Shown here one piece after another: positions 6,026 through 57,987 of a stretch of 64,000 nt of DNA. Numbering within the stretch: the stretch's first letter is position 1; every line of letters begins with the position of its first letter. The notes beneath the pieces are model-generated. The model searched no databases and had not been told where the DNA came from. It worked only from the letters and a program-made list of their open reading frames with translations. Both the position numbers and the translations under genes were made by a program. Source of the DNA: Minisyncoccia bacterium (GTDB taxonomy: Bacteria > Patescibacteriota > Minisyncoccia > Phycocordibacterales > UBA9973); assembly GCA_049287045.1 (NCBI GenBank), contig JBAQFC010000001.1, positions 3,309 to 67,308 on the forward strand, read 5' to 3'.

Positions 6026-7777
6026 ATGAGCTTCTTAGAAGAATTAGTTAAAAAAGGCATAATAACTGAAATCCAGATAGGGGAAATTAAAAATCGCGCA
6101 AAAGAAAAGCACGATGGTGATGTTGATGCAGCTTTGATTGAATCAGGAATTCCAGAAGATCAAATTCTAGAAATAAAAGGAGAATATTTTAAAATACCAA
6201 CTAAAAAAGTAAATGCTAGAGCACTTTCTTTTGATGCTCTTAAATACATACCTGAAGATTCTGCAACTCATTACAGTTTCGTTCCTCTAAGCTTGAAAGA
6301 AGAAATATTAGAAGTTGGTGTAACTGACCCAGAAAATATTCAAGCAATGGATGCATTGCAATTCATTTCTGCAAACATTGGTATACCTTTCAAAATTTTT
6401 CTTATTTCAAAAACTGATTATAAGAGTGTAATGGAAAATTACAAAGGTATCTCAAGCCAAGTAGATGAAGCACTTGAAGAATTAAGTGAAGATGAATCCT
6501 TGGATTCAAAAAGTTTAGGTGATGCTTCAAAATTAGGCAAAGACATAAAAAATGCAAAGCCTGGCGAAGAGGCTAAAATTGTGGAAGATGCGCCTGTGAT
6601 AAAAATTGTCGCGGTGATATTACGTAATGCCATAGAGGGTGGTGCGTCTGATATACATATTGAAAACACAGGAGAAAAAGTAAAAATTCGTTATCGTGTG
6701 GATGGATCACTTCATACTACTTTGGTTTTACCTACCAATGTCTATAGTGGAATAGTTGCTCGTGTAAAAATTCTTTCCAAATTACGATTGGACGAAAAAA
6801 GAAAACCTCAAGACGGATCTTTTAGTACTACTTTTGATGGCCGAAAAATTGATTTTCGTGTTTCTACAATGCCCGCTTATTATGGTGAGAAGATTGTTAT
6901 GCGTATTTTGGATTCTGAAAAAGGAGTAAAACCCTTAGATCAATTGGGCTTATCAAAAACAAATCTTAGTATTCTTAGAGAAGCAATAAAAAGACCTTAC
7001 GGACTTATCCTTATCACCGGACCGACCGGTTCTGGAAAATCAACAACTCTTTATTCAATGATGAATGAACTAGATAAAGAGAAAAGTAATATCGTGTCCT
7101 TGGAAGATCCTGTGGAGTATCACATGCCTGATATTAACCAATCACAAATGATGCCAGAGATAGGGTATACCTTTGCATCAGGTCTGCGCTCAATTCTCCG
7201 TCAAGACCCAGATGTGATAATGGTAGGAGAAATCCGAGATAAAGAAACAGCTCAGCTTGCGATTCAGGCGGCTTTGACAGGTCACCTTGTTTTGTCGACG
7301 CTTCACACAAACTCTGCTATTGGTGCTATTCCTCGTCTTGTTGATATGGGAGTTGATCCATACCTTATTGCTCCTACTTTAGTTCTTTCAGTAGCACAAC
7401 GTCTAGCAAGAGCAACTTGTCCTTCTTCTAGAAAACTTGTTCCAATGGATCAAAGTATTCGAATTCAAATAGAAGAACAAATGAAAGATCTTCCAGAAGA
7501 ATTTAAAAAAGATTTTAAAATTAAAGATGAAATGTATGAGACTATACCTTCTCCAGAATGTCCCGCTGGTACACGTGGACGTGTTGCAGTATATGAAATG
7601 TTTAAAGTAGATAAAGAAATGCAAGGTGTTATACTAAAAAGTCCTATTGATTCTGAAATTTACAAAGTTGCTCGAAGAAAAGGGATGTTGATGATGCGTG
7701 AAGATGCAATGCTTAAAGCCATGGAGGGTATTATTCCTTTTCAAGAGGTATACAACTTTAGTAATGAAAATGAGTAA
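6026..7777 (+). CDS. pilB: type IV pilus assembly ATPase PilB (GspE family)
   Basis: Walker A GPTGSGKSTTLYS; GspE N-domain; tetracysteine CPSS...CPAGTRGR. Confidence 0.9.
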   Translation: MSFLEELVKKGIITEIQIGEIKNRAKEKHDGDVDAALIESGIPEDQILEIKGEYFKIPTKKVNARALSFDALKYIPEDSATHYSFVPLSLKEEILEVGVTDPENIQAMDALQFISANIGIPFKIFLISKTDYKSVMENYKGISSQVDEALEELSEDESLDSKSLGDASKLGKDIKNAKPGEEAKIVEDAPVIKIVAVILRNAIEGGASDIHIENTGEKVKIRYRVDGSLHTTLVLPTNVYSGIVARVKILSKLRLDEKRKPQDGSFSTTFDGRKIDFRVSTMPAYYGEKIVMRILDSEKGVKPLDQLGLSKTNLSILREAIKRPYGLILITGPTGSGKSTTLYSMMNELDKEKSNIVSLEDPVEYHMPDINQSQMMPEIGYTFASGLRSILRQDPDVIMVGEIRDKETAQLAIQAALTGHLVLSTLHTNSAIGAIPRLVDMGVDPYLIAPTLVLSVAQRLARATCPSSRKLVPMDQSIRIQIEEQMKDLPEEFKKDFKIKDEMYETIPSPECPAGTRGRVAVYEMFKVDKEMQGVILKSPIDSEIYKVARRKGMLMMREDAMLKAMEGIIPFQEVYNFSNENE

Positions 7778-7851
7778 GTTTCTTTAATGCTATATCATAA
7801 AAAGTGTTTTTAGAATATAATTAATATATTATCATTTATTAAATTTTACAC

Positions 7852-8913
7852 GTGATGGATTATAAAAAAGAACTCGAAGATCTTATCCTAACTATTATCC
7901 GCGAAAGCGGTTCTGATTTGCATTTGGGTGGTGGCCGAGTACCGGTCATTCGTATTACTGGTGAACTAATTTTTTTAGTGAAGCATCCAGTTTTTACAAA
8001 AGAAGATATGATTGGAATTTTGAGTGAAGTTCTTGATCCTGTAAAACTTGCTAAATTTTTAGAAAAGAAAGAAATAGACTTCTCTTATGATTTCAGAGGG
8101 GAAGCTAGACTTCGAGGAAATGCTTTTTTCCAAAAAGGACTGATTAGTATTGCTTTTAGACTTGTTCCAGTAGTCAAACCTTTATCTGATTTACGCTTAC
8201 CTCAAATAATTGCCGATTTAACTAGAAAGAAACAAGGATTTTTCTTGGTAGTCGGACCGGTAGGGCAAGGTAAATCTACTACTTTGTCTGCTATGATTAA
8301 TCTGATTAACAATGAGCAAGCACGTCATATTGTTACAATCGAAGATCCAATCGAGCATGTTTATACTCCAAATAAATCAATCATTGACCAACGTGAAGTT
8401 GGTGTTGATACGGAAGATTTTCATATTGCTTTAAAATCTGTTTTCCGTGAAGATGTGAACGTAATTATGATCGGTGAAATGCGCAATGTTGATACTATTT
8501 CGACAGCAGTCACTGCCGCTGAGACAGGTCACCTTGTTTTATCAACACTTCATACTAATAATGCTTCACAAACCATTGATCGTATTATTGATTCTTTTCC
8601 AGGCAATCAACAGGACCAAATAAGAATCCAACTCGCATCTAGTTTGCTTGGTATTTTCTCTCAAAGACTTATTCCAAGAATTGCCGGTGGTCTTGTTCCT
8701 GCTTATGAGCTTCTTTTAAATAACAACGCTGTTTCGAATTTAATTCGAGAAAAACGCACACATGAAATCGATGTGGTTATCGAAACCGGAATGGAAAGCG
8801 GAATGGTTGATTTAAATCGATCTCTTCTTGAACTTGTTCGAGCCGGTGAGATTTCAATTGAAAATGCTTATCAATATTCACTGAACCCAAAAGCATTAGA
8901 ACGAATGATTTAG
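7852..8913 (+). CDS. pilT: twitching-motility / retraction ATPase PilT
   Basis: GPVGQGKSTTL Walker A; PilT-length protein; AIRESGSDLHL N-terminal motif. Confidence 0.9.
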   Translation: MMDYKKELEDLILTIIRESGSDLHLGGGRVPVIRITGELIFLVKHPVFTKEDMIGILSEVLDPVKLAKFLEKKEIDFSYDFRGEARLRGNAFFQKGLISIAFRLVPVVKPLSDLRLPQIIADLTRKKQGFFLVVGPVGQGKSTTLSAMINLINNEQARHIVTIEDPIEHVYTPNKSIIDQREVGVDTEDFHIALKSVFREDVNVIMIGEMRNVDTISTAVTAAETGHLVLSTLHTNNASQTIDRIIDSFPGNQQDQIRIQLASSLLGIFSQRLIPRIAGGLVPAYELLLNNNAVSNLIREKRTHEIDVVIETGMESGMVDLNRSLLELVRAGEISIENAYQYSLNPKALERMI

Positions 8914-8932
8914 TAATTAATATTGTAATATT

Positions 8933-10141
8933 ATGTTATTTAAATATAAATCAGTAGATGATAAAGGAATAAAAAGAGATGGTTCGATTGATGCCGCGAG
9001 TCGTGATATGGCGATAAGTGGTCTTCAGCGTAGAGGACTCATTATTACTTCCATTGAAGAAGAAAAAGAAAATGGAGGTTCTATTTTGAAACTTTCTTTT
9101 TTAAATAAAATTTCAACAAGAGATGTTGTGGTTCTTTCTCGTCAGATTTCAACTTTGTTTGAATCTCAGGTATCAGCTTTGAAAGCTTTTACAATGCTTG
9201 CTACAAACGCTGAAAATAAATTATTGAGTAGTAAGCTCATAAAAATAAGTGATGATCTTCAAGCAGGTATTTCTATTTCTGGTGCATTAGCAAAACACCC
9301 TGATGTTTTTTCTGATTTTTATGTAAACATGGTCAAGGTTGGTGAAGAGACTGGAAAATTAAATCAAACCTTTTCTCATTTAGCTGATTATTTAGATCGT
9401 CAATATGCTCTTACTTCCAAAACTAAAAATGCTCTTATATACCCGGCCTTTGTTGTCGGTACCTTCTTTGTGGTTATGGGACTTATGTTTGTAGTTGTTA
9501 TCCCAAAATTGTCTGCCATTATTCTTGATTCCGGACAAGATCCTCCCATCTATACCAAGATTGTTATTGCTATGTCTAACTTCTTTGTTCATTATGGTTT
9601 CATTCTTTTGATCTTTATGGTGCTTATGGGTGTTTGGTTTTGGAGACTTTCTTCAACTGATAAAGGTAAGGAATATATTGATAAAATAAGTTTGTCGATT
9701 CCAGCAGTAGGAAACCTTTATCAAAAATTGTACTTATCTCGAATCGCTGACAACTTAGACACAATGCTTACTTCTGGTATTCCAATCGTAAGAGCTATCG
9801 ATATTACTTCTGAAGTTGTTGGTAGTAAGGTTTATAGACAAATCTTAAAGGAAGCAGCTGATGGAGTGAAGTCGGGTTTGGCCCTCTCGGCTGCCTTTGA
9901 AAAACATAAGGAAATACCAGGAATTATGGTTCAGATGGTTAAAGTTGGTGAAGAAACAGGTGCCTTGGGTTCAATTTTAAAAACCCTGTCTGATTTCTAT
10001 AAAAGAGAGGTGGACGATGCTGTTGACACTTTGGTCGGACTGATTGAACCAGTTATGATCGTGGTATTAGGTCTAGGTGTCGGAATGCTTTTAGTTTCTG
10101 TCTTAATGCCGATTTACAATCTAGCTGGTGGTATAGAGTAG
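8933..10141 (+). CDS. pilC: type IV pilus inner-membrane platform protein PilC (GspF family)
   Basis: duplicated GspF domains with VKVGEETG motifs, three TM segments. Confidence 0.9.
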   Translation: MLFKYKSVDDKGIKRDGSIDAASRDMAISGLQRRGLIITSIEEEKENGGSILKLSFLNKISTRDVVVLSRQISTLFESQVSALKAFTMLATNAENKLLSSKLIKISDDLQAGISISGALAKHPDVFSDFYVNMVKVGEETGKLNQTFSHLADYLDRQYALTSKTKNALIYPAFVVGTFFVVMGLMFVVVIPKLSAIILDSGQDPPIYTKIVIAMSNFFVHYGFILLIFMVLMGVWFWRLSSTDKGKEYIDKISLSIPAVGNLYQKLYLSRIADNLDTMLTSGIPIVRAIDITSEVVGSKVYRQILKEAADGVKSGLALSAAFEKHKEIPGIMVQMVKVGEETGALGSILKTLSDFYKREVDDAVDTLVGLIEPVMIVVLGLGVGMLLVSVLMPIYNLAGGIE

Positions 10142-16840: not shown

Positions 16841-16876
16841 AAATACCCCTGACTTTGGTCAGGGGTATTTTTATTT
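16841..16876. terminator. bidirectional rho-independent terminator (A-run, acccctgac-tttg-gtcaggggt, T-run)
   Basis: perfect 9-bp stem flanked by A and T runs between convergent genes. Confidence 0.6.
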
Positions 16877-18393
16877 TACAGACCTGCTATTTTTTTAATT
16901 TCTTCGAGGTATGTTCGGTTGTTTGAAAGGCGGGGAACTTTATTCTGTCCACCGAGTTTTCCTCTTTTTTTCATCCAGTTATAAAATGTATCTTTAGATA
17001 CTGAGTTAATAATTAGTGGAGCGAGGGCGATATCTTTATATCTTTTTGCATCATAGTCAGAATTAATTGCGCGTAGATTTGAATCAAGAAGTTCACTAAA
17101 TTCCTTCAGTGAACTAGGAGGATTTTCAAATTCAATAACCCATTCATGTCCACCCCGGTTTGAATTGTTCATAAAAATTGGAGCGACTGTATATTCAGAA
17201 ATAGTAGTACCAGTTTGATCACAGGTTTTTTTAATTGCTAAGTCTGTGTTGTGTACCATTACTTCTTCTCCGAAAACGTTAATAAAATGTTTTGTTCGGC
17301 CAGTTATTTTAATACGATGAGGCAAAAGTGTTGTAAAGGAAACCGTATCACCAATTATATAACGCCAGAGACCACTATTAGTAGAAATAACTAATACATA
17401 ATTTTTATCAATTTCTACATCAGACATCGTGTATACTTTAGGATTTTCTAGTTCAAATTCACTCGTCGGAATAAATTCATAAAAAACACCACAATCTGGC
17501 ATTAATAGCATTTCTCCTTCACGTAATGGATCGTCTTGTACTGCAAAAAATCCTTCTGAAGAATTGTATGCTTCCATATAATTCATTTGGGGTGATGGAA
17601 AGAGTTCTTGAAAACTTTTTTTATAAGGCAAAAAGGAAACTGCGCCATGAAAAAAAACTTCTAAATTGGGCCACACTTCAAAAATATTTTTTGCTTTTGT
17701 TTTTTCTAAAACTTTTTTTACCAGTATGGCTGTCCATGTCGGTACACCTGCAATACTTGTAACATTTTGATTTATCGCTTCATTAGCCAGTTTTTCAATT
17801 TTTTCTTCATAATCTTCAAGTAATGCTGTTTTTAAGCTTGGAGTTCTGAGATATTTTCCAAGTGGTGGCATATTTTTCATCATAACAGCTGAGATATCAC
17901 CACAAAAAATATCTGGGTTTTGTTTTATTTTTGTAAAACTTCCGCCAACACAAAGACTTTTTCCTTTGAAGATTTTGGTATTTGGATTATTTTTAATATA
18001 TAGACATACTTCATTTGTGCCGGCTTTGGTGTGGCAGTCTTTTATTGATTCCTTAGAAACAGGGATAAATTTGCTTCGAGCATTTGTTGTGCCGGAAGAT
18101 TTAGAAAACCAAGTTGTTAATCCGGGCCAAAGAACATTTTTTTCTCCCGTCATCATTCTAGATATGAAAGGTTGGAGATCTTCATATAAGTTAATCGGTA
18201 CATTCTTTTGAAAACGCTCCACCGTTTTGATAGAACTATATTTATGTTTTTTGCCCCATTCAGTATTCTTTGATCTTCTTAAAAGACTAAATAACACTTT
18301 TTCCTGTGCTTTTTTAGGGTCCTTTTCTATTCTTTCTATTTCAGCAAGTCTGTATTTTATAGGTAATTTTAATAGAGTGTGGATAAAGTTCAT
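16876..18393 (-). CDS. GH3-family acyl-acid amido synthetase (adenylate-forming enzyme)
   Basis: GH3 motifs SSGTTNARSKFIP (I), YNSSEG (II), YRYIIGDTV (III); start set at Met30 of the track ORF so the upstream palindrome is non-coding (the ORF is open to 18480). Confidence 0.7.
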   Translation of the reverse strand: MNFIHTLLKLPIKYRLAEIERIEKDPKKAQEKVLFSLLRRSKNTEWGKKHKYSSIKTVERFQKNVPINLYEDLQPFISRMMTGEKNVLWPGLTTWFSKSSGTTNARSKFIPVSKESIKDCHTKAGTNEVCLYIKNNPNTKIFKGKSLCVGGSFTKIKQNPDIFCGDISAVMMKNMPPLGKYLRTPSLKTALLEDYEEKIEKLANEAINQNVTSIAGVPTWTAILVKKVLEKTKAKNIFEVWPNLEVFFHGAVSFLPYKKSFQELFPSPQMNYMEAYNSSEGFFAVQDDPLREGEMLLMPDCGVFYEFIPTSEFELENPKVYTMSDVEIDKNYVLVISTNSGLWRYIIGDTVSFTTLLPHRIKITGRTKHFINVFGEEVMVHNTDLAIKKTCDQTGTTISEYTVAPIFMNNSNRGGHEWVIEFENPPSSLKEFSELLDSNLRAINSDYDAKRYKDIALAPLIINSVSKDTFYNWMKKRGKLGGQNKVPRLSNNRTYLEEIKKIAGL

Positions 18394-18404
18394 ATATTTA
18401 TTTT

Positions 18405-18449
18405 CCCCGATACCTGGTTTAGGGTAATCCCCTAAACCAGGTATCGGGG
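18405..18449. promoter_or_regulatory. perfect 20-bp inverted repeat with 5-nt loop (ccccgatacctggtttaggg-taatc-ccctaaaccaggtatcgggg) in the divergent GH3/truB intergenic region
   Basis: read directly; 20/20 complementarity. Confidence 0.5.
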
Positions 18450-18508
18450 AAACGGTCTTTTGCCATATATAGTATACCAAATTGTGCTACAATAATTTCA
18501 TATTAAAT

Positions 18509-24188: not shown

Positions 24189-24818
24189 ATGCATATTTAT
24201 GATTTTTTAATTAACAATATTCTTCCTAAATTTGAAAGCTTTGGATATTGGGGTTATGCAATATCATTTACGATAGCATTTTTGGAATCAATTGCATTTA
24301 TTGGTGCAATTTTACCAGGTTCAACAGTAATTGTAATAATAGGTTTTCTTTCTTCTCAGGGCATATTAAATATTTGGAATCTTTTGTGGATAGCTGCTCT
24401 GGGGGCTATGACAGGAGATTGTGTTAGTTATTATCTTGGGACTAAGGGTAAAAGATTTTTTCCAGGAGAAGGTAGGTTATTAAAAAGAGATCATCTTGAA
24501 AGAGCAGAATATTTTTTTAAGAAACATGGTGGAAAGAGTATTTTTCTTGCACGTTTTATTGGACCTCTTCGACCAATAGTTCCTTTTGTTGCAGGATTTT
24601 CAAAAATGAACCTTAAAACTTTTTTATTTTGGAATTTATCCAGTGCTGTTTTATGGGCAGTTTCACATCTTGTTTTAGGATATTTCCTTGGAAGTGCTAT
24701 AGGTAAAATAGCATTTTGGTCAAAATGGGTTAGTATAATAGGTGGAATAATATTTATATCTATTATTACCTGGTTTATTTCTCGTTCAACTAAAGCTTCT
24801 GTTCTAAAAGAATATTAA
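24189..24818 (+). CDS. DedA/VTT-family membrane protein
   Basis: WGYAISFTIAFLESIAFIGAILPG motif. Confidence 0.75.
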   Translation: MHIYDFLINNILPKFESFGYWGYAISFTIAFLESIAFIGAILPGSTVIVIIGFLSSQGILNIWNLLWIAALGAMTGDCVSYYLGTKGKRFFPGEGRLLKRDHLERAEYFFKKHGGKSIFLARFIGPLRPIVPFVAGFSKMNLKTFLFWNLSSAVLWAVSHLVLGYFLGSAIGKIAFWSKWVSIIGGIIFISIITWFISRSTKASVLKEY

Positions 24819-24941: not shown

Positions 24942-25202
24942 ATGGCAAATGTAGATATTCACGGTTTTAAGGTAAATTATGATGATAATAGCCATACTTT
25001 AAGGACTGCAGTGCATTACTTGGGAGATAAACTTGATAAATCTGAGGCAGAGGTTTTTTTTGATGTAGCACGTAGGGATAGAATAAACCACAAAAGTCAT
25101 CTTCAAGTTCGCGACCCCGAGACTGGTGTAAATCACGATTTAACACTGACTTACGACGAGAGTGAAGGGTGTTATTTTTTAAAAAAGAGATTAATTCATT
25201 AA
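24942..25202 (+). CDS. small hypothetical protein (86 aa)
   Basis: ORF only. Confidence 0.3.
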   Translation: MANVDIHGFKVNYDDNSHTLRTAVHYLGDKLDKSEAEVFFDVARRDRINHKSHLQVRDPETGVNHDLTLTYDESEGCYFLKKRLIH

Positions 25203-25221
25203 TAATAAATATAATATTAAT

Positions 25222-26425
25222 TATGACTAGTTTAGAAAAAGCAAAATTAGAAGTTCCAAAAGAAAACCCAAATTTACCAATGCAACTTAAATTTGAGGTA
25301 TCTTCTTCTGAAGTAATAGAAAAACTTTTATCTGTAAAAGATTTAACTTTGTCTACAGAAGATGGTGAGTACAGAAATATAATAGGAAAGGTTTACGATC
25401 AAGTTATAAAAAAGTTAGATGAGCATAATTTTCCTGATGTCCATGTTGTAAGAGGTAGTCCTATTGTTCTAGCAGTAGATAATTTTGACAGTCTTTTATT
25501 TTCTCCTGGGAATCCAGGCAGATCTTCTACTTATACTAGATACACAGACGAAGATCATGTACTTAGAACTCACACATCTGCATTAATTCCATCAACTTTT
25601 AAAAATTTTGAAAAAAGCAATATTGATCGCTCAACATTCGTGCTTCCTGGTTTGGTGTACAGACGAGATGTTATTGACCCTAGGCATTTAGATGTTTTTC
25701 ATCAGATAGATATTTGGACTTTACAAGACAATAAAAAATATGGAAAAGTTGGTAGAGAAAATTTACTGGAATTAGCTAGGACTGTTTTTGAGGCTGCCTG
25801 CCCAGATGCTGAGATGATTGTATATGAAGCTAAACATCCTTATACAGTTGACGGTATAGAAGTTTATGCGAAGGTTGATGATAAAGAGATAGAAGTTTTT
25901 GAGGCAGGACTTGCTCATCCAGATGTATTAATAAATTGCGGAATAAACCCAGAGCAATATTCAGGGTTGGCCTTAGGTATGGGGGTAGAGAGATTGATTA
26001 TGGCAAGAAAAAATTTGCCAGACATTAGGCTTATAAGATCTGTTGATTCACGAATTATTAAACAAATGACCAACATGGAGAAGTTTAAAAATGTTTCTGA
26101 TCAACCTGCGATATCTCGTGATATGTCTTATATTGTTAATAAAGATGATACAGAAGAAGATCTTTGTGAAGACATAAGGAATGTCTTTGGTGACCAGAGT
26201 GATTTATTGGAAGAAGTTAAGATTTTGGAAAGAACTTCATACGAAAACTTACATCCTGTTGCAAGAGAAAAACTTGGAGCAAAAGAAGGTCAAGATAATG
26301 TATTAGTACGAATTATATTGAGACATCCTGATAAAACCTTAACCAAGAAAGAGGCTGCAGAATTGTACGAAATCGCATATCCCAAGCTCCACAAAGGTGC
26401 TACAAAAGGGTATGAAGTTAAGTAG
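25222..26425 (+). CDS. pheS: monomeric mitochondrial-type phenylalanine--tRNA ligase (PheS-like class II core fused to a C-terminal FDX-ACB anticodon-binding domain)
   Basis: NFDSLLFSPGNPGR, LRTHTSA, GLVYRRDVIDPRHLDVFHQID, GLALGMGVERLIMARKNLPDIRL; C-terminal ISRDMSY...RTSYENLHPV...KTLTKKEA (FDX-ACB pattern); no pheT nearby. Confidence 0.8.
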
Positions 26426-26450
26426 TTTTCTGCTATAATATCGATACTTT

Positions 26451-28505
26451 ATGGCAAAAGAAAAAGAAGAAAAAAAGCAGAAATACGGTGCGGAACAGAT
26501 TTCCATTTTGGAAGGTCTAGAACCTGTACGTAAGCGTCCTGGAATGTACATCGGTACTACTGGTCCTGAAGGACTTCACCATCTTGTATGGGAAATTTTT
26601 GATAACTCACGCGATGAAGCGATGGGAGGGTTTTGTGATGATATTGAAGTAGTTTTGCTTCCTGGTAATCGTATTCGTGTTGCCGACAATGGCCGCGGAA
26701 TCCCGACCGACATCCACCCAAAATCAAAAGTATCAGCTCTTGAGACTGTTATGACAACTCTTCATGCTGGAGGAAAATTCGGTGGAGAAGATTCTGGTTA
26801 CAAAGTTTCTGGAGGTCTGCACGGAGTGGGTGCTTCTGTTGTGAATGCTTTATCTGTTTATACGAAAGCAGAAGTTCACCATGATGGAGGAAAGTTTATG
26901 CAGGAATACAGTCAGGGAAAGAAAAAAGCTCCTGTTAAAAAAGTGGGCACTTCAAAGAAAAGTGGAACCATTATTACTTTCGAACCAGACATAGAAATCT
27001 TTAAAGAGGGTATCAAGTTTAGTTGGGACACTGTTGTAAACCACATTCGTCAGCAAGCGTATCTAGTTAAAGGTTTAAAAATATTAATTGTTGATGCACG
27101 TGGTTATGAAGGAAAAATAGATGATTCAGATATTTTCTATTTTAGAGAATTAGAACTCGAGCTTCCTTCTGTCGCTTTTTATTTCGAAGGCGGACTTACT
27201 TCACTTATTAAATATTATAATAAATTTCAAAAGCCGATTCACACTAATATTTTTTATATTGAAAAAGAATTGGATAGTGTCGGTGTAGAAATAGCTCTTC
27301 AGTATGTAGATGATATCTCTGATAGAATAATTCCTTTCGCGAACAATATTCACACACCTGAAGGCGGTACTCATATTACTGGTTTTAAAACAGCACTCAC
27401 TCGTACCCTCAATACTTACTGTAAGAAAAATGAAATGATGAAAGAGGCTGAAGGAGGATTTACTGGAGATGATGTCTTGGAAGGTCTTACAGTTGTCGTT
27501 TCAGTTAAGCTTCGTGAAATTCAATTTGAAGGACAGACGAAGGCCAAACTGGGCTCTATGGAGGCTCAAGGTGCCGTAGCGACCGTCTTTGGTGAAGCTT
27601 TTGCTTCATTTCTAGAAGAAAACCCTGATGATTCTAAATCTATAATCAACAAGTCAATTCTAGCCCTCAAGGCCCGCAAGGCTGCCAAGGCAGCCAAGGA
27701 TTCTGTTTTGCGTAAAGGTGCCCTAGAAGGTATGACTTTGCCTGGAAAATTGGCAGACTGTCAGAGTAAGAGCGCGGAAGAATCAGAACTCTTCCTTGTA
27801 GAGGGAGATTCTGCGGGAGGTTCAGCCAAACAAGGACGAGACAGACGTACTCAAGCGATCCTCCCTTTGAAGGGAAAAATCTTGAATGTCGAAAGAGCTC
27901 GTATCGACAAGATGCTTGCTTCAAAAGAAATAAAATCTTTGGTTATTGCGATGGGTGCTTCAATCGGTGATACTTTTGATCTTTCCAAAATGCGTTATCA
28001 TAAGATAATTATCGCGACAGATGCCGACGTGGACGGAGCCCACATTCGTACGCTTCTTCTGACACTTTTCTATCGTTACTTCCGACAGGTGATAGATGCA
28101 GGGTATATATATATTGCCCAACCTCCACTTTATAAGATTAAAAAAGGAAAACAGATCAATTACGCTTACTCGGATGAAGAAAGAATTAAATTTGCAGGTG
28201 AAGCTGATGTTGAGATAGAAAATTTAGAAGATGAAGTTGTTGCTCCAGAAGGAGAAGAGACAGAAGAAGAAATAAAAAAGAAATCTACTAAAGTACATAT
28301 CCAGCGTTACAAGGGTCTCGGAGAAATGAATCCTGAAGAGCTTTGGGAGACAACCATGGACCCAGCTCATCGTATCGTTAAAAAGGTGAATATTGAAGAT
28401 GCAGAAGAAGCCAATAAAATATTTGATATTCTTATGGGTTCCGAAGTCCCTCCACGTAAGTCATTCATTCAGTCGAATGCTAAGCTTGCAGAGATTGATC
28501 TATAA
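26451..28505 (+). CDS. gyrB: DNA gyrase subunit B (short form, no large insert)
   Basis: GHKL ATPase motifs, Toprim LFLVEGDSAGGSAKQGRDR, C-terminal tail QRYKGLGEM. Confidence 0.85.
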   Translation: MAKEKEEKKQKYGAEQISILEGLEPVRKRPGMYIGTTGPEGLHHLVWEIFDNSRDEAMGGFCDDIEVVLLPGNRIRVADNGRGIPTDIHPKSKVSALETVMTTLHAGGKFGGEDSGYKVSGGLHGVGASVVNALSVYTKAEVHHDGGKFMQEYSQGKKKAPVKKVGTSKKSGTIITFEPDIEIFKEGIKFSWDTVVNHIRQQAYLVKGLKILIVDARGYEGKIDDSDIFYFRELELELPSVAFYFEGGLTSLIKYYNKFQKPIHTNIFYIEKELDSVGVEIALQYVDDISDRIIPFANNIHTPEGGTHITGFKTALTRTLNTYCKKNEMMKEAEGGFTGDDVLEGLTVVVSVKLREIQFEGQTKAKLGSMEAQGAVATVFGEAFASFLEENPDDSKSIINKSILALKARKAAKAAKDSVLRKGALEGMTLPGKLADCQSKSAEESELFLVEGDSAGGSAKQGRDRRTQAILPLKGKILNVERARIDKMLASKEIKSLVIAMGASIGDTFDLSKMRYHKIIIATDADVDGAHIRTLLLTLFYRYFRQVIDAGYIYIAQPPLYKIKKGKQINYAYSDEERIKFAGEADVEIENLEDEVVAPEGEETEEEIKKKSTKVHIQRYKGLGEMNPEELWETTMDPAHRIVKKVNIEDAEEANKIFDILMGSEVPPRKSFIQSNAKLAEIDL

Positions 28506-28517
28506 TAAAATATAAAA

Positions 28518-28551
28518 CAAAAAGCCCGCGACCAAGGTCGCGGGCTTTTTG
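28518..28551. terminator. bidirectional terminator (agcccgcgacc-aa-ggtcgcgggct plus T5) between gyrB and thrS
   Basis: 11-bp GC-rich stem flanked by A and T runs. Confidence 0.7.
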
Positions 28552-28563
28552 TTTATATTTGTT

Positions 28564-30711: not shown

Positions 30712-31611
30712 ATGGCAAATAGGCACCTTTCCAGATCAATAGTACTCCAAACCCTTTTTGAATGGGATTTTAACGGTGCTAAGGATATGCCTCTAAAAGA
30801 AGCTGCTGAACGTAATTTAAAAGAATTCGCCCCGGGACTCGAGGACGATATTTTCGTGTTGGCTCTTTTAGATTTAGTAATAAAAAAGCGTTCTGTTATT
30901 GATGAAATTATTGAGAAAGCAGCTCCAGATTGGCCAATAGATAAAATTTCAGTTGTTGATAGAAATATTTTAAGAATCGGTTTAACTGAACTTCTTTTTG
31001 GTGACCGTACACAAGTACCACCAAAGGTGGCTATCAACGAAGCTATTGAATTAGCTAAATCTTTTGGTGGTGAAAACTCTGGTAAATTTATTAATGGAGT
31101 TCTTGGAGCAGTCTATAAAGAAATCGGTGAACCAGGAAAAGATGAAATAAGTAAAAAGAAAAAGAATAATGAACCAGTAGATATAACCAAACTCCCAATC
31201 GAAAAATTTGGTGGAGCATTAATTTATTCCCAAAAAGGTGGTAATCTTTACCTTGCATTAGTACATGACGTTTTCGGTTATTGGACTCTATCCAAAGGTC
31301 ACATTGACGAAGGAGAAAGTGAAGAAGATGGTACAGTCAAAAGAATTAAAGAAGAAATCGGTCTTGATATTACGATAAAAGAAAAAATTGGTGATAACCA
31401 ATATGTTGCCAGTCATCCTGAAAAAGGTAAAACTTTGAAAAAAGTTTCATATTTCCTGGCTGAGAGTGAATATCACGATCTCTTGCTTGAAAGTTCTGGT
31501 GGTCTCGACGGAGCAAGATGGTTCCAGCTTTCTGAGATTCCAGAATTACATATCTATAATGATATTATTCCACTTATTACCAAAGCTATTGAAATTATTA
31601 GTAAAAAATAG
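30712..31611 (+). CDS. nusB: NusB antitermination factor fused to a C-terminal Nudix hydrolase domain
   Basis: NusB fold residues 1-150 (RSIVLQTLFEWDF...); Nudix box GHIDEGESEEDGTVKRIKEEIGL with correct Gx5Ex7 spacing, residues ~190-212. Confidence 0.8.
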   Translation: MANRHLSRSIVLQTLFEWDFNGAKDMPLKEAAERNLKEFAPGLEDDIFVLALLDLVIKKRSVIDEIIEKAAPDWPIDKISVVDRNILRIGLTELLFGDRTQVPPKVAINEAIELAKSFGGENSGKFINGVLGAVYKEIGEPGKDEISKKKKNNEPVDITKLPIEKFGGALIYSQKGGNLYLALVHDVFGYWTLSKGHIDEGESEEDGTVKRIKEEIGLDITIKEKIGDNQYVASHPEKGKTLKKVSYFLAESEYHDLLLESSGGLDGARWFQLSEIPELHIYNDIIPLITKAIEIISKK

Positions 31612-32331: not shown

Positions 32332-34584
32332 ATGAGATTAAAATCGCTTGAAATAAACGGTTTTAAGTCATTTGCTAAAAAAACTCCTTTAGAATTTTTG
32401 AGTCCCGTAGTTTCAGTGGTAGGCCCAAACGGTTCTGGAAAATCGAACGTTGTTGAAGCTTTTCGTTTTGTCTTGGGTGAACAATCCATGAAATCGATGA
32501 GAGGTAAAACAGGTACTGATTTGATTTTTAAAGGTTCCAAGAATTTATCTAAAGGCACTCGAGCTGTGGTTTCTATTTTTTTTGATAATAAAGATAAAGT
32601 TTTTAAACTAGAAAATGAAGTAGGGGAGAATATTAATTTGAACTATGACACTATCAGTATCTCACGAGAAGTTTATGCTGATGGCTTAAATAAGTATATT
32701 TTAAACGGTTCAGAGGTCAGACTAAAAGATATCAATAATCTTTTGGCTTCAGTTAATATTGGTTCTTCTGGACATCATATTATTTCACAAGGAGAAGCAG
32801 ATAGAATATTGAATGCATCACCTCGTGATAGACGAGAAATGATTGAGGACGCATTGGGTCTTAAGATATATCAATATAAAATAAAAGATTCAGAAAGAAA
32901 GCTCGAGCGCACTACCAATAATATGAAAGAAGTTTCCTTGATAAGAAAGGAAATCACTCCACATTTAAATTTTTTAAAACGTCAGGTAGAAAAATTTGAA
33001 AAAGCCAAAGAAATGAAAGTAGATCTTTCAAATCTTTACCGTGAGTATTTAAAGAAGGAAAGTTTTTATTTAGATACTCAAAAGTCTGAGTTGCACTCAG
33101 AAAAAAATAAAATCCAAACAGAGATGGCAGAGCTTGCCAGTAAAATTTCTAGTATTGAAGATACTGGTATGGTGCAAGAAAACCCTAAAAATGAAGAACT
33201 TCGAAATTTTGATAGAAAAATCTATGAAATTAGAAGTTTGAAAGGGGAACTGGATCGTAAACTTGGACGTATTGAAGGTATGATTGAGATGGAAGAGCGC
33301 AGGGTAAAAAAGGCACCACAACAAGTGCATGTTGTTTCTCACGAAGAAGTAATAAAGATTGTTGGTGAAGTTAATAATTATATTGATGAAGCTCTTGATA
33401 AAGATAGTTTGGCTGAAGTATCGGCTATTTTGAGTAGAATTAAGATTATTTTAAATAAATTTAATCAAACCCCTGAGCCCTTAGAAAATATATCTAATTC
33501 TGAAGAAATGGATAATTTGAAAAATACTCAAGCGGGTGTCTTTGCTGAAATACAAAATATTCAAAATGAAGAGAATAAAATAAATCAACAAGCAGCAAAT
33601 TTAAGAAGAGAAATTGATTCTGAAAACGAAGATACTCGAATTAAAGAAAGAGAAAAATTTAATTACAAAGTAAAACAACAAGAGCTTTCTGCTTCCCTTA
33701 ATATTATATTGGTAAAAGAGGACAGTCTGTCTCGAAGGTCAGAAGCTTTTGAAAATGAAATAAAAGAAGGAGCTGCACTGATAGGTGTTGATGTTTTGTC
33801 TTATAAGAATTTTGAAATTTCTGGGTCTGTAGATGAATATGCTCAAGATGAACAAAAGAGAAAAATAGAAAGAATAAAAATAAAGTTAGAAGATGCAGGT
33901 CTTGGTGGGGGAAGTGAAATTTTAAAAGAATACAATGAAGTCTCAGACCGAGATAAATTTTTGGCAAAAGAGATGGAAGATCTGGCTGTTAGTATTGATT
34001 CATTACGAAAATTAATGTTAGATCTGAAAGAAAAAATTGATATTACCTTTAAAGAAGGAGTTAAAAAGATAAATACTGAGTTTCAGGAATTCTTCTCCCT
34101 TATGTTTGGTGGAGGTTCAGCTTTTTTGGCAGTAGTTGCTGAACAAAAAAGAAAGAAAAATAATAAAGGTGAACCCAATGAAGTGGAGGATGATTTTGAT
34201 GAAGAAAATGAAAATGGAATTATTTTCGAGCATGGTATTGAGATTAATGTTTCTCTACCACATAAAAAAGTAAAAGAGCTTCAGGCACTCTCTGGAGGGG
34301 AACGATCTCTGACTTCTATCGCTTTGCTTTTTTCAATGTCTCAAGTCAATCCGCCGCCTTTCTTGGTCTTAGATGAGACCGATGCCGCTCTCGATGAATC
34401 AAATTCTCGTAAATACGGTGATATGCTAGAAAAGCTTTCTAAACATTCCCAACTTGTTGTTATTACTCACAATAGAGAGACGATGTCTCGTGCTGGAGTG
34501 CTCTATGGCGTCACTATTGGTGCTGACGGTGCTTCTAAACTCCTTTCTATTAAGTTTGACGAAGCTCAAGCTATTGCGAAATAA
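32332..34584 (+). CDS. smc: SMC-family chromosome segregation ATPase, short form (750 aa, no obvious hinge domain)
   Basis: N-terminal MRLKSLEINGFKSFA...GPNGSGKSN; C-terminal LSGGERSLTSIALLF...LVLDETDAALD. Confidence 0.75.
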   Translation: MRLKSLEINGFKSFAKKTPLEFLSPVVSVVGPNGSGKSNVVEAFRFVLGEQSMKSMRGKTGTDLIFKGSKNLSKGTRAVVSIFFDNKDKVFKLENEVGENINLNYDTISISREVYADGLNKYILNGSEVRLKDINNLLASVNIGSSGHHIISQGEADRILNASPRDRREMIEDALGLKIYQYKIKDSERKLERTTNNMKEVSLIRKEITPHLNFLKRQVEKFEKAKEMKVDLSNLYREYLKKESFYLDTQKSELHSEKNKIQTEMAELASKISSIEDTGMVQENPKNEELRNFDRKIYEIRSLKGELDRKLGRIEGMIEMEERRVKKAPQQVHVVSHEEVIKIVGEVNNYIDEALDKDSLAEVSAILSRIKIILNKFNQTPEPLENISNSEEMDNLKNTQAGVFAEIQNIQNEENKINQQAANLRREIDSENEDTRIKEREKFNYKVKQQELSASLNIILVKEDSLSRRSEAFENEIKEGAALIGVDVLSYKNFEISGSVDEYAQDEQKRKIERIKIKLEDAGLGGGSEILKEYNEVSDRDKFLAKEMEDLAVSIDSLRKLMLDLKEKIDITFKEGVKKINTEFQEFFSLMFGGGSAFLAVVAEQKRKKNNKGEPNEVEDDFDEENENGIIFEHGIEINVSLPHKKVKELQALSGGERSLTSIALLFSMSQVNPPPFLVLDETDAALDESNSRKYGDMLEKLSKHSQLVVITHNRETMSRAGVLYGVTIGADGASKLLSIKFDEAQAIAK

Positions 34585-56538: not shown

Positions 56539-57987
56539 TTGTTTTTAATTATTAATAAATCGTCATCTTTTAAAAATATGAAAATATTAAACAAGGTTTC
56601 TATTGCGTCCGTCTTGGTTTTTGCTTTCGTTTTAGGTTTTACTGGATCATCTACTGCAAATGCAGCTGGTCCTTCGGTAGTCAATCTTGGATCAGCAGGT
56701 GATTTTGTCCTTCTTGGAAAAACAGGAATCTCAACTACTGGGACAACTGCAATCACAGGAGATATTGGAGTCAGCCCTGCCGCAGCGACTTATATCACTG
56801 GATTTGGATTAATAATGGACACCTCAAATACATTCTCAACATCTTCTCTTGTTACAGGTAAAGTTTATGCAGCTGATTATACTGCTCCAACTCCAACTAA
56901 GATGACTACAGCTATCAGTAATATGGAAACTGCTTACACTGATGCTGCAGGAAGAACAAATCCAACTGCAACTGAATTGGGCTCCGGAAATATTGGTGGA
57001 TTAACAATTGCACCTGGACTCTACAAATGGGGTACTTCTGTGATAGTGCCGACTGATGTTACTTTATCAGGAAGCACAAACGATGTTTGGATTTTCCAGA
57101 TAGCACAAGATCTTTCTTTAAGTTCTGGTGTTCATATCAATTTGGCTGGTGGTGCAAAAGCTGAAAATATTTTCTGGCAGGTGGCTGGTCAAACAACCTT
57201 AGGAACAACTTCTGTTTTTAACGGAAATATTTTAGACCAAACAGCTGTTGTATTTAATACTGGCGCAACATTAAATGGTAGAGCTCTTGCACAAACTGCT
57301 GTTACATTGGATTCAAATTCTGTAATTATTCCCGCAGTTGTTTCTGTAACTCCAACCCCAGAAGTAACACCAACACCTGTAGTTACACCAACTACTACAG
57401 TAAATACGACCGTAACACCTACATCAACAACTATAACTCCAGTCACAACTGTTACAGCTGCCACAGGTTGTCTACAAGGAAATGCTTTTAATACAGCCAC
57501 TGGTGCTTCTTGTACTCCTCCTATTTCTGCAAGTGAAGGTTGTCTGCAAGGTAATATGTTTAACACAGTTACAGGTACTGCTTGTACTTCCGTTGTTGTC
57601 TCTGTTGACACAGGTTGTTTACAAGGAAATAAATTTAGTATAACTACAGGAAATACTTGTACTTCTTTCGTTCCTAATGTTTCTACTAATACTACTACTT
57701 CAACTGTATCAACTACCACTACTCCAGCCAATTTTGGCCAACTAATAAAATCAATTGCTGTTAATCTTAATATGGGTAGCAAAGGAGATTTAGTAAGAAG
57801 TCTTCAAGAGTTTCTAATTTCACAAGACAAAGGTCCTAAAGCAAAAGCTCTAGATGCCCACGGTACAACTTTAAACTTTGGATCTTTAACTAAAGCAGCT
57901 TTGGCTGAGTGGCAAGAAGCTGTTGGTATTTCTCCAGCGCTAGGAAACTTTGGACCAATAACTCGAACTTTTATAAGTGCAAATTAA
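56539..57987 (+). CDS. secreted DUF3494 (ice-binding-like beta-solenoid) protein with three tandem 20-aa Cys repeats (GCLQGNxFNTxTGxxCT) and a C-terminal peptidoglycan-binding (PGBD-like) domain
   Basis: signal peptide; NLGSAGDFVLLGKTGISTTGTTAITGDIGVSPAAATYITGF; three 60-bp DNA repeats at 57467-57650; C-terminal LVRSLQEFL...AALAEWQ. Confidence 0.55.
   Translation: MFLIINKSSSFKNMKILNKVSIASVLVFAFVLGFTGSSTANAAGPSVVNLGSAGDFVLLGKTGISTTGTTAITGDIGVSPAAATYITGFGLIMDTSNTFSTSSLVTGKVYAADYTAPTPTKMTTAISNMETAYTDAAGRTNPTATELGSGNIGGLTIAPGLYKWGTSVIVPTDVTLSGSTNDVWIFQIAQDLSLSSGVHINLAGGAKAENIFWQVAGQTTLGTTSVFNGNILDQTAVVFNTGATLNGRALAQTAVTLDSNSVIIPAVVSVTPTPEVTPTPVVTPTTTVNTTVTPTSTTITPVTTVTAATGCLQGNAFNTATGASCTPPISASEGCLQGNMFNTVTGTACTSVVVSVDTGCLQGNKFSITTGNTCTSFVPNVSTNTTTSTVSTTTTPANFGQLIKSIAVNLNMGSKGDLVRSLQEFLISQDKGPKAKALDAHGTTLNFGSLTKAALAEWQEAVGISPALGNFGPITRTFISAN

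Follow-up and report, generated by a model that had tools for sequence, protein, structure and literature searches.

We identified, in a 64-kb window (the whole stretch of DNA analysed here, i.e., 64,000 nucleotides of contig JBAQFC010000001.1 from a Minisyncoccia bacterium), a gene, designated srmL-B, that by its sequence is a member of the B branch of the SrmL family, a family that is catalogued yet uncharacterised. Its product may be a catalytically competent, editing-free, single-chain class IIc synthetase directed at tRNA-Phe, a reading to which we assign a probability of about 0.5 and which is based on fold, domain architecture, catalytic residues, family, purifying selection, and the linkage between SrmL and tRNA-Phe.

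Gene Model and Domain Organization

srmL-B, 25223..26425, + strand: coding sequence, 400 aa plus stop; class IIc synthetase-like ligase, SrmL family, CPR-specific B branch
N-terminal region, 25223..25381, + strand: aa 1–53; helix MTSLEKAKxEVxKENPxLPMxLKFEVS, specific to B, then the DLT motif shared by the whole family (aa 40–42)
Class II catalytic core, 25382..26077, + strand: aa 54–285 (Pfam PF01409 over aa 52–282); THTS aa 116–119, motif 2 aa 142–165 (R147, R148, H160, Q161, D163, W165), HPYTVDG aa 205–211, motif 3 GLALGMGVER aa 248–257
HPYTVDG substrate-wall motif, 25835..25855, + strand: stands where PheRS have the FPFTEPS Phe-ring wall
FDX-ACB (ferredoxin-fold anticodon-binding) domain, 26096..26398, + strand: aa 292–392 (Pfam over aa 292–387)

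The sequence-only reading had placed the start of this gene at 25222 and counted 401 residues, which is one base off; the frame begins at 25223 and encodes 400 aa, and the frame starting at 25222 contains 47 stops. The ATG at 25223 was favoured over an upstream GTG at 25169 because homologues conserve the N-terminus MTSLEKAK. The three motifs quoted in that reading were all recovered (VLRTHTSA, aa 113–120; LVYRRDVID, within aa 142–165; GLALGMGVERL, aa 248–258). This ORF is a genuine gene and far from a chance ORF, given that a protein search found >1000 homologues (74–93% identity; the best 120 matches were listed) and that dN/dS is ~0.06 in comparison to a 92%-identical orthologue.

The predicted fusion of a class II core to a C-terminal FDX-ACB domain was confirmed; a ferredoxin fold is seen in the AF2 model (pLDDT 91.1, pTM 0.88) and by Foldseek, and the Pfam matches were tRNA-synt_2d (E 2.8e-34) and FDX-ACB at 30.6 bits, slightly below its gathering score of 31.1. 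The likeness to monomeric FARS2 also held for architecture and fold according to Pfam, AF2, and Foldseek, as the best Foldseek matches were human mtPheRS structures (3CMQ/5MGH; TM 0.67–0.72 over ~400 columns) and human mtPheRS was likewise the best PDB sequence match (E 4e-23). In the model, the N-terminal region forms helices at residues 3–14 and 29–36, followed by D40, L41, and T42, which are invariant in the alignments. The FDX-ACB domain comprises strands at 297–306, 329–339, and 357–366 and helices at 311–328, 345–351, and 375–389, including an SrmL-specific helix insertion (AxExLG, aa ~345–352).

Assignment to the SrmL Family

The claim that the protein is a mitochondrial-type PheRS was not borne out. 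SrmL-B matched the NCBIfam model NF051887 ("PheS-related mystery ligase SrmL") over model positions 14–349 with 371.2 bits (cutoff 300, E 4.9e-111), and scored only 144 bits against the mitochondrial model TIGR00469 (pheS_mito, cutoff 258.35) and 98.6 bits against TIGR00468 (pheS, cutoff 237.45), with no match to Phe_tRNA-synt_N. As in SrmL, a PheS-type core and an FDX-ACB-like domain are joined in one chain of ~370–410 aa, and an SrmL signature derived here (HPYTxxG, HQxDxW, and GLA[LM]GxGL[DE]R, found in 342–355 of 357 family sequences) is present at aa 205–211, 160–165, and 248–257, in place of the PheRS residues. NCBI curators chose the name "mystery ligase" deliberately for this curated equivalog of unknown function, and neither SrmL nor a monomeric PheRS of CPR bacteria came up in a full-text literature search. 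PHROG matches were limited to phrog_19793 and phrog_21682 (both "unknown function"; profile lengths 339 and 798), which profile length and matched regions suggest to be PheS- and PheT-like; the PADLOC defence-system library gave no match.

A neighbour-joining tree (182 core columns) was built with PheS, FARS2-type, and "type M" sequences, the latter representing a separate, canonical-looking monomeric PheRS encoded by a different gene in related Giovannonibacteria (L135:17554-18693, P0533; representatives P0183 and P0203). The SrmL clade was recovered with a support of 60/60, split from PheS, and the window sequence was nested in its B subclade; the type M sequences clustered separately (57/60), with 31% identity between type M and the window protein. 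Against pheS_mito (cutoff 258), type M sequences scored 264 and 241 bits, and they carry FPYTDPS, FHQIDG, and GWAFGPG as well as anticodon-binding residues D/Y/S and a terminal R.

The family has thousands of members, found in Patescibacteria, in ordinary large-genome bacteria, and on huge-phage-like contigs. Large-genome carriers include Azotobacter, Cystobacter, Saccharospirillum, and Actinoplanes, which we take to carry PheST; one copy is located on a 307-kb Azotobacter replicon, and the range of SrmL includes a replicon in which mobile elements abound. As these large-genome bacteria would be expected to have PheST, belonging to the family is no evidence that PheST has been replaced.

CPR genomes bear two SrmL paralogues, often side by side, which would be odd for a plain PheRS. 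The B branch is CPR-specific and ~40% identical to typical SrmL members ("type A"); B proteins present an extra conserved N-terminal helix (the A proteins do without the first ~30 residues) and FHQ rather than PHQ in motif 2, and type A presents a weak match to the PheT CLM domain. No common neighbours of type A were found in Azotobacter, Saccharospirillum, and Cystobacter. The idea that B branches basally and links type M to type A was considered and rejected, as the tree nests B inside SrmL.

Genomic Context and Conservation

orf86, 24942..25202, + strand: 86 aa; stop 21 bp upstream of srmL-B; conserved only in close relatives
gyrB, 26451..28505, + strand: 25 bp 3′ of srmL-B
Bidirectional hairpin terminator, 28515..28554, both strands: strong; 18-bp stem with 9 GC pairs, T tracts on both strands
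Near-identical tract, 25000..26500, no strand assigned: shared with contig JAVHNX010000007.1; flanks differ by 5–12%

The adjacency of srmL-B and gyrB is seen again in many relatives, and the two genes are probably co-transcribed since no terminator lies between them; the hairpin at 28515..28554 closes the unit made up of orf86, srmL-B, and gyrB on one side and thrS, which runs convergently, on the other. The product of orf86, which presented no match in Pfam, NCBIfam, or PHROG, is 97% identical in L004–L008 and 68% identical in L009; type A and type M genes of CPR bacteria likewise have small ORFs 5′ of them, which are unrelated to orf86. No T-box or other regulatory RNA was found 5′ of SrmL genes in the window or at 10 loci from other bacteria.

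SrmL-B is at least as conserved as GyrB and far more conserved than ThrS (92/92/68, 86/83/65, and 86/78/53% identity to relatives for SrmL-B/GyrB/ThrS), and a dN/dS of ~0.056 relative to the 92%-identical orthologue indicates strong purifying selection; srmL-B behaves as a core gene in this organism and is probably important for these uncultured CPR bacteria. Compared to JAVHNX010000007.1, srmL-B presented a single nucleotide difference in 1203 (dS 0.004), as opposed to a dS of 0.34 for gyrB and 0.55 for thrS. The confinement of this near-identity to 25000..26500 suggests that a recombination, transfer, or sweep took place recently and spanned srmL-B almost exactly.

Linkage to tRNA-Phe

In the CPR loci L064, L066/L067, and L068, a tRNA-Phe(GAA) gene is located 35–62 bp from srmL-B, and in L064 it is placed between srmL-B and srmL-A. 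On huge-phage-like contigs, srmL-A ends arrays of 25–29 tRNAs, with tRNA-Phe on both sides of the gene in L132 and just upstream of it in L134. This adjacency represents two independent lineages only, namely a subclade of B and a group of phages. The tRNAs of the window are limited to Ser(GGA), Thr(GGT), and Thr(CGT), with no tRNA-Phe among them and none adjoining srmL-B. Given the linkage at other SrmL loci, an activity directed at tRNA-Phe is plausible, and SrmL probably acts on this tRNA.

Catalytic and Anticodon-Binding Residues and Proposed Function

Across 64 A and B sequences, R147, R148, D149, H160, D163, R257, and H205-P-Y-T208 are invariant, as are the motif 3 columns G248/A250/G252/G254, and the THTS residues T116, T118, and S119 are at least 90% conserved. 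H205, Y207, and T208 occupy the positions of E. coli PheS F248, F250, and T251. The floor of the PheRS pocket is kept (equivalents of E. coli T251 and A294); the wall around the Phe ring is changed from FPFTEPS to HPYTxxG, with both wall residues swapped for other invariant ones, and FHQxEG and G[FW]AFG of bona fide PheRS are replaced by HQxDxW and GLA[LM]G. The Glu-to-Asp exchange in FHQxEG was rejected as a diagnostic, since Asp also occurs in FARS2-type and type M sequences. Recognition of G34 by mitochondrial PheRS involves Asp364, Phe366, Ser375, and Arg414 (PMC7540514); the first three correspond to E336, T338, and N359 in SrmL-B, replacements that are themselves invariant, with a carboxylate retained at the first position, and SrmL-B has no C-terminal Arg as counterpart of Arg414. 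The rebuilt wall and G34 residues, shared with bacteria expected to have PheST, fit a changed specificity just as well as an alternative PheRS.

In the mechanism that we propose, the arginines of motifs 2 and 3 would let the class II core bind ATP, and the core would form the adenylate of phenylalanine or of an aromatic amino acid of similar size, in a pocket with the PheRS floor kept (T208 and A250) and walls rebuilt with H205, Y207, W165, and L249/L251. The FDX-ACB domain, carried on an mtPheRS-like hinge, would hold tRNA-Phe(GAA) by its anticodon arm, using a surface remodelled at E336, T338, N359, and the C-terminal LHxG...GY, and the aminoacyl group would then move to the 3′ end of the tRNA, with neither an editing domain nor a beta subunit taking part; in this organism, srmL-B would be expressed together with gyrB. 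We infer which amino acid is activated, which tRNA accepts it, and that the enzyme acts as a monomer.

The signature could also mean that SrmL-B, and SrmL-A with it, is a neofunctionalised paralogue that uses another substrate (e.g., a hydroxylated or polar aromatic one), another acceptor, or both, or that serves a non-translational pathway, with the real PheRS encoded elsewhere; we regard this as clearly less probable than a tRNA-Phe-directed synthetase. It would account for the contrast between the invariant SrmL signature and the FPFTEPS, FHQxEG, and G[FW]AFG motifs of all PheS and FARS2-type sequences, for the replacement of the G34 contacts by E/T/N, and for the score of the FDX-ACB part against pheT_bact, which is only 22 bits for SrmL-B as compared to 75.6 bits for type M; the "mystery ligase" name and the occurrence of SrmL in large-genome bacteria and on the mobile-element-rich replicon also favour it, as does the general presence of PheRS beta in CPR bacteria (PMC5370408; PMC6744442). 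However, the pocket floor is unchanged, His and Tyr remain aromatic, and type M already has Tyr at the second wall position. In addition, tRNA-Phe genes flank SrmL in CPR and phage contigs, a non-Phe residue on tRNA-Phe would mean mistranslation, and type A genes in ordinary bacteria lack conserved biosynthetic or partner genes.

Search for Other PheRS Genes

E. coli PheS, PheT, and RplT (from NC_000913.3) were used as queries in tblastn and phmmer searches. The statement that no pheT is adjacent stood, as none was found in the 64-kb window, and annotation of its large ORFs revealed no PheT; no RplT homologue was found in the window, and phmmer with SrmL-B against all window ORFs found only SrmL-B itself, i.e., no second PheS-like ORF. 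Neither the window nor the ~1.1 Mb around >100 SrmL loci contained a canonical pheS/pheT, and the RplT query gave no match in this flanking DNA either. A scan of IMG/VR with a degenerate FPFTEPSxE pattern yielded PheS of ordinary bacteria and FARS2-type genes of giant viruses alone, and no CPR PheS. The type M gene adjoins gyrB and shares a contig with an SrmL-A gene; srmL-B sits in roughly the slot that type M has in Giovannonibacteria (the ligA-gatCA-tRNA-Met pair...gyrB neighbourhood), and the two genes were never found together among the sampled SrmL loci.

These results bear on a special case of the tRNA-Phe-directed reading, in which SrmL-B would be the only PheRS of the organism and would have replaced PheST in a streamlined genome. 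The lack of canonical pheS/pheT around SrmL loci argues for this case, although the flanks sampled amount to ~20 kb per genome and absence there therefore says little; the lack of sampled loci with both srmL-B and type M, which have a similar syntenic slot, the core-gene-level conservation, and the apparent operon shared with gyrB also favour it, and three PheRS systems in a ~0.7 Mb genome would be surprising. On the other hand, ordinary bacteria carry this family alongside PheST, no known PheRS has its residue signature, and the same genomes carry a second SrmL paralogue, so that we consider a role as sole PheRS unlikely. An inactive pseudo-synthetase or regulatory subunit, of the kind represented by HisZ or by PheT's catalytic-like module, is very improbable, as the ATP- and aminoacyl-binding motifs are all invariant in A and B, even though loss of catalysis is common among aaRS paralogues, adjacent A and B genes recall an alpha/beta pair, and type A weakly matches the PheT CLM domain.

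Significance

To our knowledge, PheRS is the textbook exception among synthetases, being a large (alpha-beta)2 enzyme everywhere but in organelles. SrmL combines the organellar one-chain design and intact catalytic residues with a systematically rebuilt substrate and anticodon surface in thousands of bacterial and phage sequences. If it is an alternative PheRS, it would represent a compact, editing-free, horizontally mobile enzyme, with bearing on the origin of mitochondrial PheRS, on resistance to PheRS-targeting compounds, and on the engineering of orthogonal pairs; if it has a new specificity, it would represent a new aminoacylation activity. We tentatively suggest that SrmL may be a fourth functional lineage in class IIc, in which either (a) SrmL-B displaced both PheST and type M as the only PheRS in Paceibacteria like the one studied here, or (b) tRNA-Phe is loaded with a non-canonical aromatic amino acid. 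Possibility (a) would provide a bacterial counterpart of the mitochondrial solution, mobile via plasmids and huge phages together with tRNA-Phe, and possibility (b) would provide a natural device for recoding or for tRNA-dependent biosynthesis. The tRNA-Phe linkage and the presence of type M in a sister lineage make the "mystery" of SrmL directly testable.

Comparison with Known Systems

SepRS and PylRS show that, within class IIc, a core derived from PheRS can acquire a remodelled pocket (PMC8762117) and a new amino-acid specificity. Their anticodon-binding domains and oligomeric states differ from those of SrmL-B, which presented no sequence-level membership in either group. One faint PylS match was observed, on a neighbouring LysRS-like gene.

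The core of SrmL-B is homologous to E. coli PheS (34% identity over ~200 aa), with the THTS motif and the motif 2 and motif 3 arginines conserved. Unlike bacterial PheS, from which SrmL is split with a support of 60/60, SrmL-B has no N-terminal coiled coil and carries its own anticodon-binding domain in the role of PheT. Type M, which is bacterial and in part from CPR, has a two-domain layout like that of SrmL-B but keeps the canonical PheRS residues.

Human FARS2 (3CMQ/3TUP) presents the same order of elements as SrmL-B in one chain (N-terminal segment, class IIc core, hinge, and FDX-ACB domain), and the two proteins have in common motif 2 (VYRRDxID..H...HQ) and the hinge (DIRLxxSxDxR..Q). 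However, they are only 23–24% identical, the FPFT and GWAFG motifs of FARS2 are HPYT and GLALG in SrmL-B, such that the Phe wall and motif 3 are not those of FARS2, and the anticodon-binding domain of SrmL-B contains an inserted helix of 12 residues. The SrmL members of NF051887 are alike to the window protein in both the two-domain layout and the HPYTxxG, HQxDxW, and GLAxGxGL[DE]R signature; the window protein differs from typical SrmL in belonging to the CPR-only B branch, with an extra N-terminal helix and FHQ in place of PHQ.

Gene Structure, Domains, and Predicted Fold

The sequence-only reading had placed a 401-aa open reading frame at 25222-26425. This ORF is real, with a start wrong by one base: the frame beginning at 25222 contains 47 stops, and the ATG at 25223 agrees with the N-terminus conserved among homologues. 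The corrected feature is:

25223-26425, forward strand: srmL-B, encoding a single-chain PheRS-like ligase of 400 aa (SrmL-B)

All PheS class II motifs cited in that reading were found in the protein, which presented Pfam matches to the PheS class II core (PF01409, E = 2.8e-34, aa 52-282) and to the FDX-ACB domain (aa 292-387; 30.6 bits, slightly below the gathering score of 31.1). An AlphaFold2 model built from a 64-sequence alignment (pLDDT 91.1, pTM 0.88) bore out the claimed C-terminal FDX-ACB domain, showing a ferredoxin-like fold there. The top Foldseek matches were human mitochondrial monomeric PheRS (FARS2; 3CMQ and 5MGH) with TM 0.67-0.72 over ~400 columns and 23-24% identity, and FARS2 was also the top PDB match by sequence; matches to bacterial PheS chains were confined to the core. 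As that reading also stated, no pheT is adjacent; neither a PheT nor an RplT homologue, nor a second PheS-like ORF, was found anywhere in the 64-kb window.

Family Membership and Distribution of SrmL

SrmL-B passes the NCBIfam model NF051887, "PheS-related mystery ligase SrmL" (371 bits; cutoff 300). It was rejected as a FARS2-type PheRS (pheS_mito, 144 vs. a cutoff of 258) and as a PheS (99 vs. 237), and it fails the archaeal pheS model. The earlier observation is confirmed and its interpretation as a mitochondrial-type PheRS partly supported: the one-chain core plus FDX-ACB layout stands (Pfam, AlphaFold2, and Foldseek), and membership in the FARS2-type family does not. srmL-B is a new B-branch member of a catalogued, uncharacterised family, on which a full-text literature search found no publication.

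When 1.84 billion cluster representatives were scanned with HMMER, 726 matched at E ≤ 1e-10; among the best 150 of these, every one was a single-chain core plus FDX-ACB protein, of two kinds, SrmL-like and FARS2-like. SrmL extends far outside the Patescibacteria (CPR), to carriers including Saccharospirillum mangrovi, Actinoplanes, Cystobacter fuscus, Anaeromyxobacter, Longimicrobium, Kaarinaea, and Azotobacter chroococcum. The A. chroococcum gene (type A; CP066311.1) lies on a 307,780-bp replicon amid transposases, an HNH gene, and a PIN/PhdYeFM toxin-antitoxin pair; in this species it is accessory, and the region around it is mobile. No neighbours are shared across the Azotobacter, Saccharospirillum, and Cystobacter contexts, the gene standing alone in all three. 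SrmL was also found on three IMG/VR contigs (415-578 kb), at least one of which has phage-like gene content: ThyX and a large ORF the size of a DNA polymerase, as assessed by visual inspection of N-terminal sequence.

The family has two forms that share about 40-43% identity, each scoring above the SrmL cutoff. Type A (~370 aa) gives the best fit to the NCBIfam model and is present wherever the family occurs, while type B, the form in the window (~400 aa, with an additional conserved N-terminal helix), occurs in Nomurabacteria, Jorgensenbacteria, and other Parcubacteria. The two are neighbouring and convergent in L036, L040, L052/L053, and L064 (homologous loci compared here), and lie 5 kb apart on 704-801-kb Nomurabacteria contigs; contigs of equal size (129,720; 76,909; 14,084) in both match lists are consistent with this co-occurrence. 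In one further locus (L077:10001-12308), a far more divergent SrmL paralogue comes directly after a B-like gene (49% identity), on the same strand and with its start overlapping the end of the B-like gene.

In a simple neighbour-joining tree (182 core columns, no outgroup), canonical PheS and SrmL (A + B) were each supported in 60/60 replicates, type M (a separate, canonical-looking monomeric PheRS-like protein) in 57/60, and eukaryote/giant-virus FARS2 in 40/60. The tree leaves the branching order of SrmL, type M, and FARS2 unsettled; a basal position of B within SrmL was rejected, as B is nested inside the family.

Catalytic and Specificity Residues

Across 64 A and B sequences, R147/R148, H160, and D163 of motif 2 and G248, A250, G252, G254, and R257 of motif 3 are invariant, and the THTS residues T116, T118, and S119 are ≥90% conserved. 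Because this catalytic machinery is conserved, the enzyme should be active.

Systematic changes affect the residues on which PheRS specificity depends. FPFTEPS (E. coli F248/F250) is replaced by HPYTxxG in 355 of 357 sequences, FHQxEG-L by HQxDxW in 342 of 357, and GFAFG by GLA[LM]G. The pocket floor is kept (T208 and A250, the equivalents of T251 and A294 in E. coli; in the engineering literature, these two residues limit substrate size at the para position). Both a 12-residue helix insertion and a C-terminal LHxG...GY are conserved in the anticodon-binding domain. Where human mitochondrial PheRS contacts G34 through D364, F366, S375, and R414 (PMC7540514), the alignment places E336, T338, and N359 in SrmL-B, with the terminal Arg absent.

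Linkage to tRNA-Phe

In one B subclade (L064, L066/L067, and L068; 57-58% identical to the window protein), srmL-B has a tRNA-Phe(GAA) gene 35-62 bp downstream. The L064 copy sits between srmL-B and srmL-A, in the orientation of the latter. In the huge-phage-like contigs, srmL-A terminates arrays of 25-29 tRNAs with two tRNA-Phe genes per array, which flank srmL-A on both sides in L132, where the two GAA copies are clearly unlike in sequence; in L134, tRNA-Phe is immediately upstream. The features are:

L064:11262-11335: tRNA-Phe(GAA) beside srmL-B
L066:2013-2088: tRNA-Phe(GAA) beside srmL-B
L068:5298-5371: tRNA-Phe(GAA) beside srmL-B
L132:9711-11311 (IMG/VR, 415 kb): srmL-A at the end of a tRNA array
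L134:8136-11080 (IMG/VR, 578 kb): srmL-A at the end of a tRNA array
L133: srmL-A

These represent two independent associations, each with a chance probability of roughly 1e-3 or less by informal position counting. The adjacent tRNAs resemble ordinary tRNA-Phe with A73; the CPR genes near srmL-B have G37, which is archaeal/eukaryotic-like, versus the bacterial A37. No tRNA-Phe gene was found inside the window.

Genomic Context and Selection

The window is a Patescibacteria fragment (Paceibacteria/Minisyncoccia, Nomurabacteria-like; GC ~33%). Its nearest public relative, JAVHNX010000007.1 (GCA_036169735.1; 91-97% DNA identity), represents a different strain, since dedA is missing and a GH3 gene is broken there. 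dedA (24189-24818) is absent from that elsewhere collinear contig, and the GH3/OlsH-like gene (16876-18480, 533 aa; 399 bits vs. a lyso-ornithine lipid synthetase cutoff of 620) is intact in the window and reduced to 51-65-aa fragments in L004. Other window genes include:

6026-10141: type IV pilus/type II secretion-like cluster (PilB-type ATPase, 353-aa ORF, T2SSF/PilC-type platform protein)
30712-31611: 299-aa ORF, an apparent fusion of a NusB domain (aa 4-137) and a C-terminal MutT/Nudix-like region (aa 168-256)
32332-34584: SMC homologue with an apparently shortened coiled coil (750 aa vs. ~1180 in the model; mainly the head halves matched)
56539-57987 and 58014-59684: tandem ice-binding-like (PF11999) protein genes, the second with DUF7507 repeats

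srmL-B is separated by 21 bp from the upstream gene and 25 bp from the downstream one; no terminator was found between srmL-B and gyrB, and a strong bidirectional terminator lies 3′ of gyrB. Orthologue identities for SrmL-B/GyrB/ThrS were 92/92/68, 86/83/65, and 86/78/53%, and dN/dS for srmL-B was 0.042/0.744 against L009. Against JAVHNX010000007.1, 1 of 1203 nt is changed (dS 0.004) within a near-identical tract of roughly 1.5 kb (~25,000-26,500) centred on srmL-B, and the flanks have diverged normally (dS 0.34 for gyrB and 0.55 for thrS). A near-identical gene between normally diverged gyrB and thrS suggests recent recombination, transfer, or a sweep acting on srmL-B specifically.

Gene orders at the loci compared (orf86, small ORF upstream of srmL-B) were:

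Window: uvrD-like, AI-2E transporter, dedA, orf86, srmL-B, gyrB, convergent thrS
Window, synteny: ligA...orf86, B, gyrB
L020 (type B): ligA, gatC, gatA, x, tRNA-Met, tRNA-Met, tRNA-Asp, x, x, B
L135: ligA..gatC, gatA, x, tRNA-Asp, x, A, lysS-like..., tRNA-Met, tRNA-Met, M, x, gyrB

B therefore roughly occupies the place that M has in Giovannonibacteria. A census of 20-kb views per locus gave B alone in 91, A + B in 12, A + M in 2, and B + M in none; synteny and non-co-occurrence within these views hint that B and M are functionally equivalent.

The CPR type A neighbourhood is conserved (L135/L145/L146/L147): a small ORF (89-109 aa) overlaps the srmL-A start, and next, in convergent orientation, come a LysRS-like gene that scores below threshold (264 vs. 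468 bits), two dCTP-deaminase-like genes, and methyltransferase, DAP/Orn-decarboxylase-like, and LD-carboxypeptidase genes. L146 additionally has deoxyhypusine-synthase-like and AdoMet decarboxylase genes close by.

Possible Functions of SrmL-B

The evidence supports SrmL-B as a putative active, single-chain, editing-free synthetase, most likely with tRNA-Phe as acceptor; with that acceptor, Phe or a very close analogue is the most economical amino acid. We give a probability of about 0.5 to SrmL-B making Phe-tRNA-Phe or a near equivalent. His and Tyr could still wall an aromatic ring, and Tyr already occupies the second wall position in type M. A different substrate or role seems less likely, even though pocket walls and anticodon surface are both rebuilt and invariant family-wide, A and B paralogues are paired, and SrmL is present in bacteria already having the heterotetrameric PheST; among the large-genome carriers, Azotobacter, Cystobacter, Saccharospirillum, and Actinoplanes have PheST. 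These same features argue against a plain housekeeping PheRS, and if SrmL-B does make Phe-tRNA-Phe, that it is the only PheRS of its organism is less likely than not. CPR bacteria in general possess PheRS beta (PMC5370408), and a CPR-rich data set has about as many PheRS alpha as beta annotations (PMC6744442); both sources speak of CPR at large. The interest of SrmL lies in a large, mobile, catalytically intact family with a link to tRNA-Phe and gyrase-level constraint in CPR.

Comparison with Monomeric PheRS

Type M (P0533; 380 aa, single chain) is encoded on Giovannonibacteria contigs, adjoining gyrB and 6.4 kb from the SrmL-A gene:

L135:17554-18693, reverse strand: type M
L136:14252-15394, reverse strand: type M

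Type M, not the window gene, fits the earlier description residue by residue (FPYTDPS, FHQIDG, and GWAFGPG, with anticodon residues D/Y/S/terminal R). P0533 narrowly missed the pheS_mito cutoff (240.8 vs. 258), which its relative P0183 passes (264); relatives outside CPR include an Oligoflexia MAG and a contig carrying succinate dehydrogenase genes. If a true monomeric PheRS exists in bacteria, type M is a stronger candidate for it than SrmL. The FDX-ACB part of type M reached 75.6 bits against pheT_bact and that of SrmL-B 22; giant-virus and eukaryotic FARS2-type genes, unlike SrmL, retain FPFTEPS and FHQMEG.
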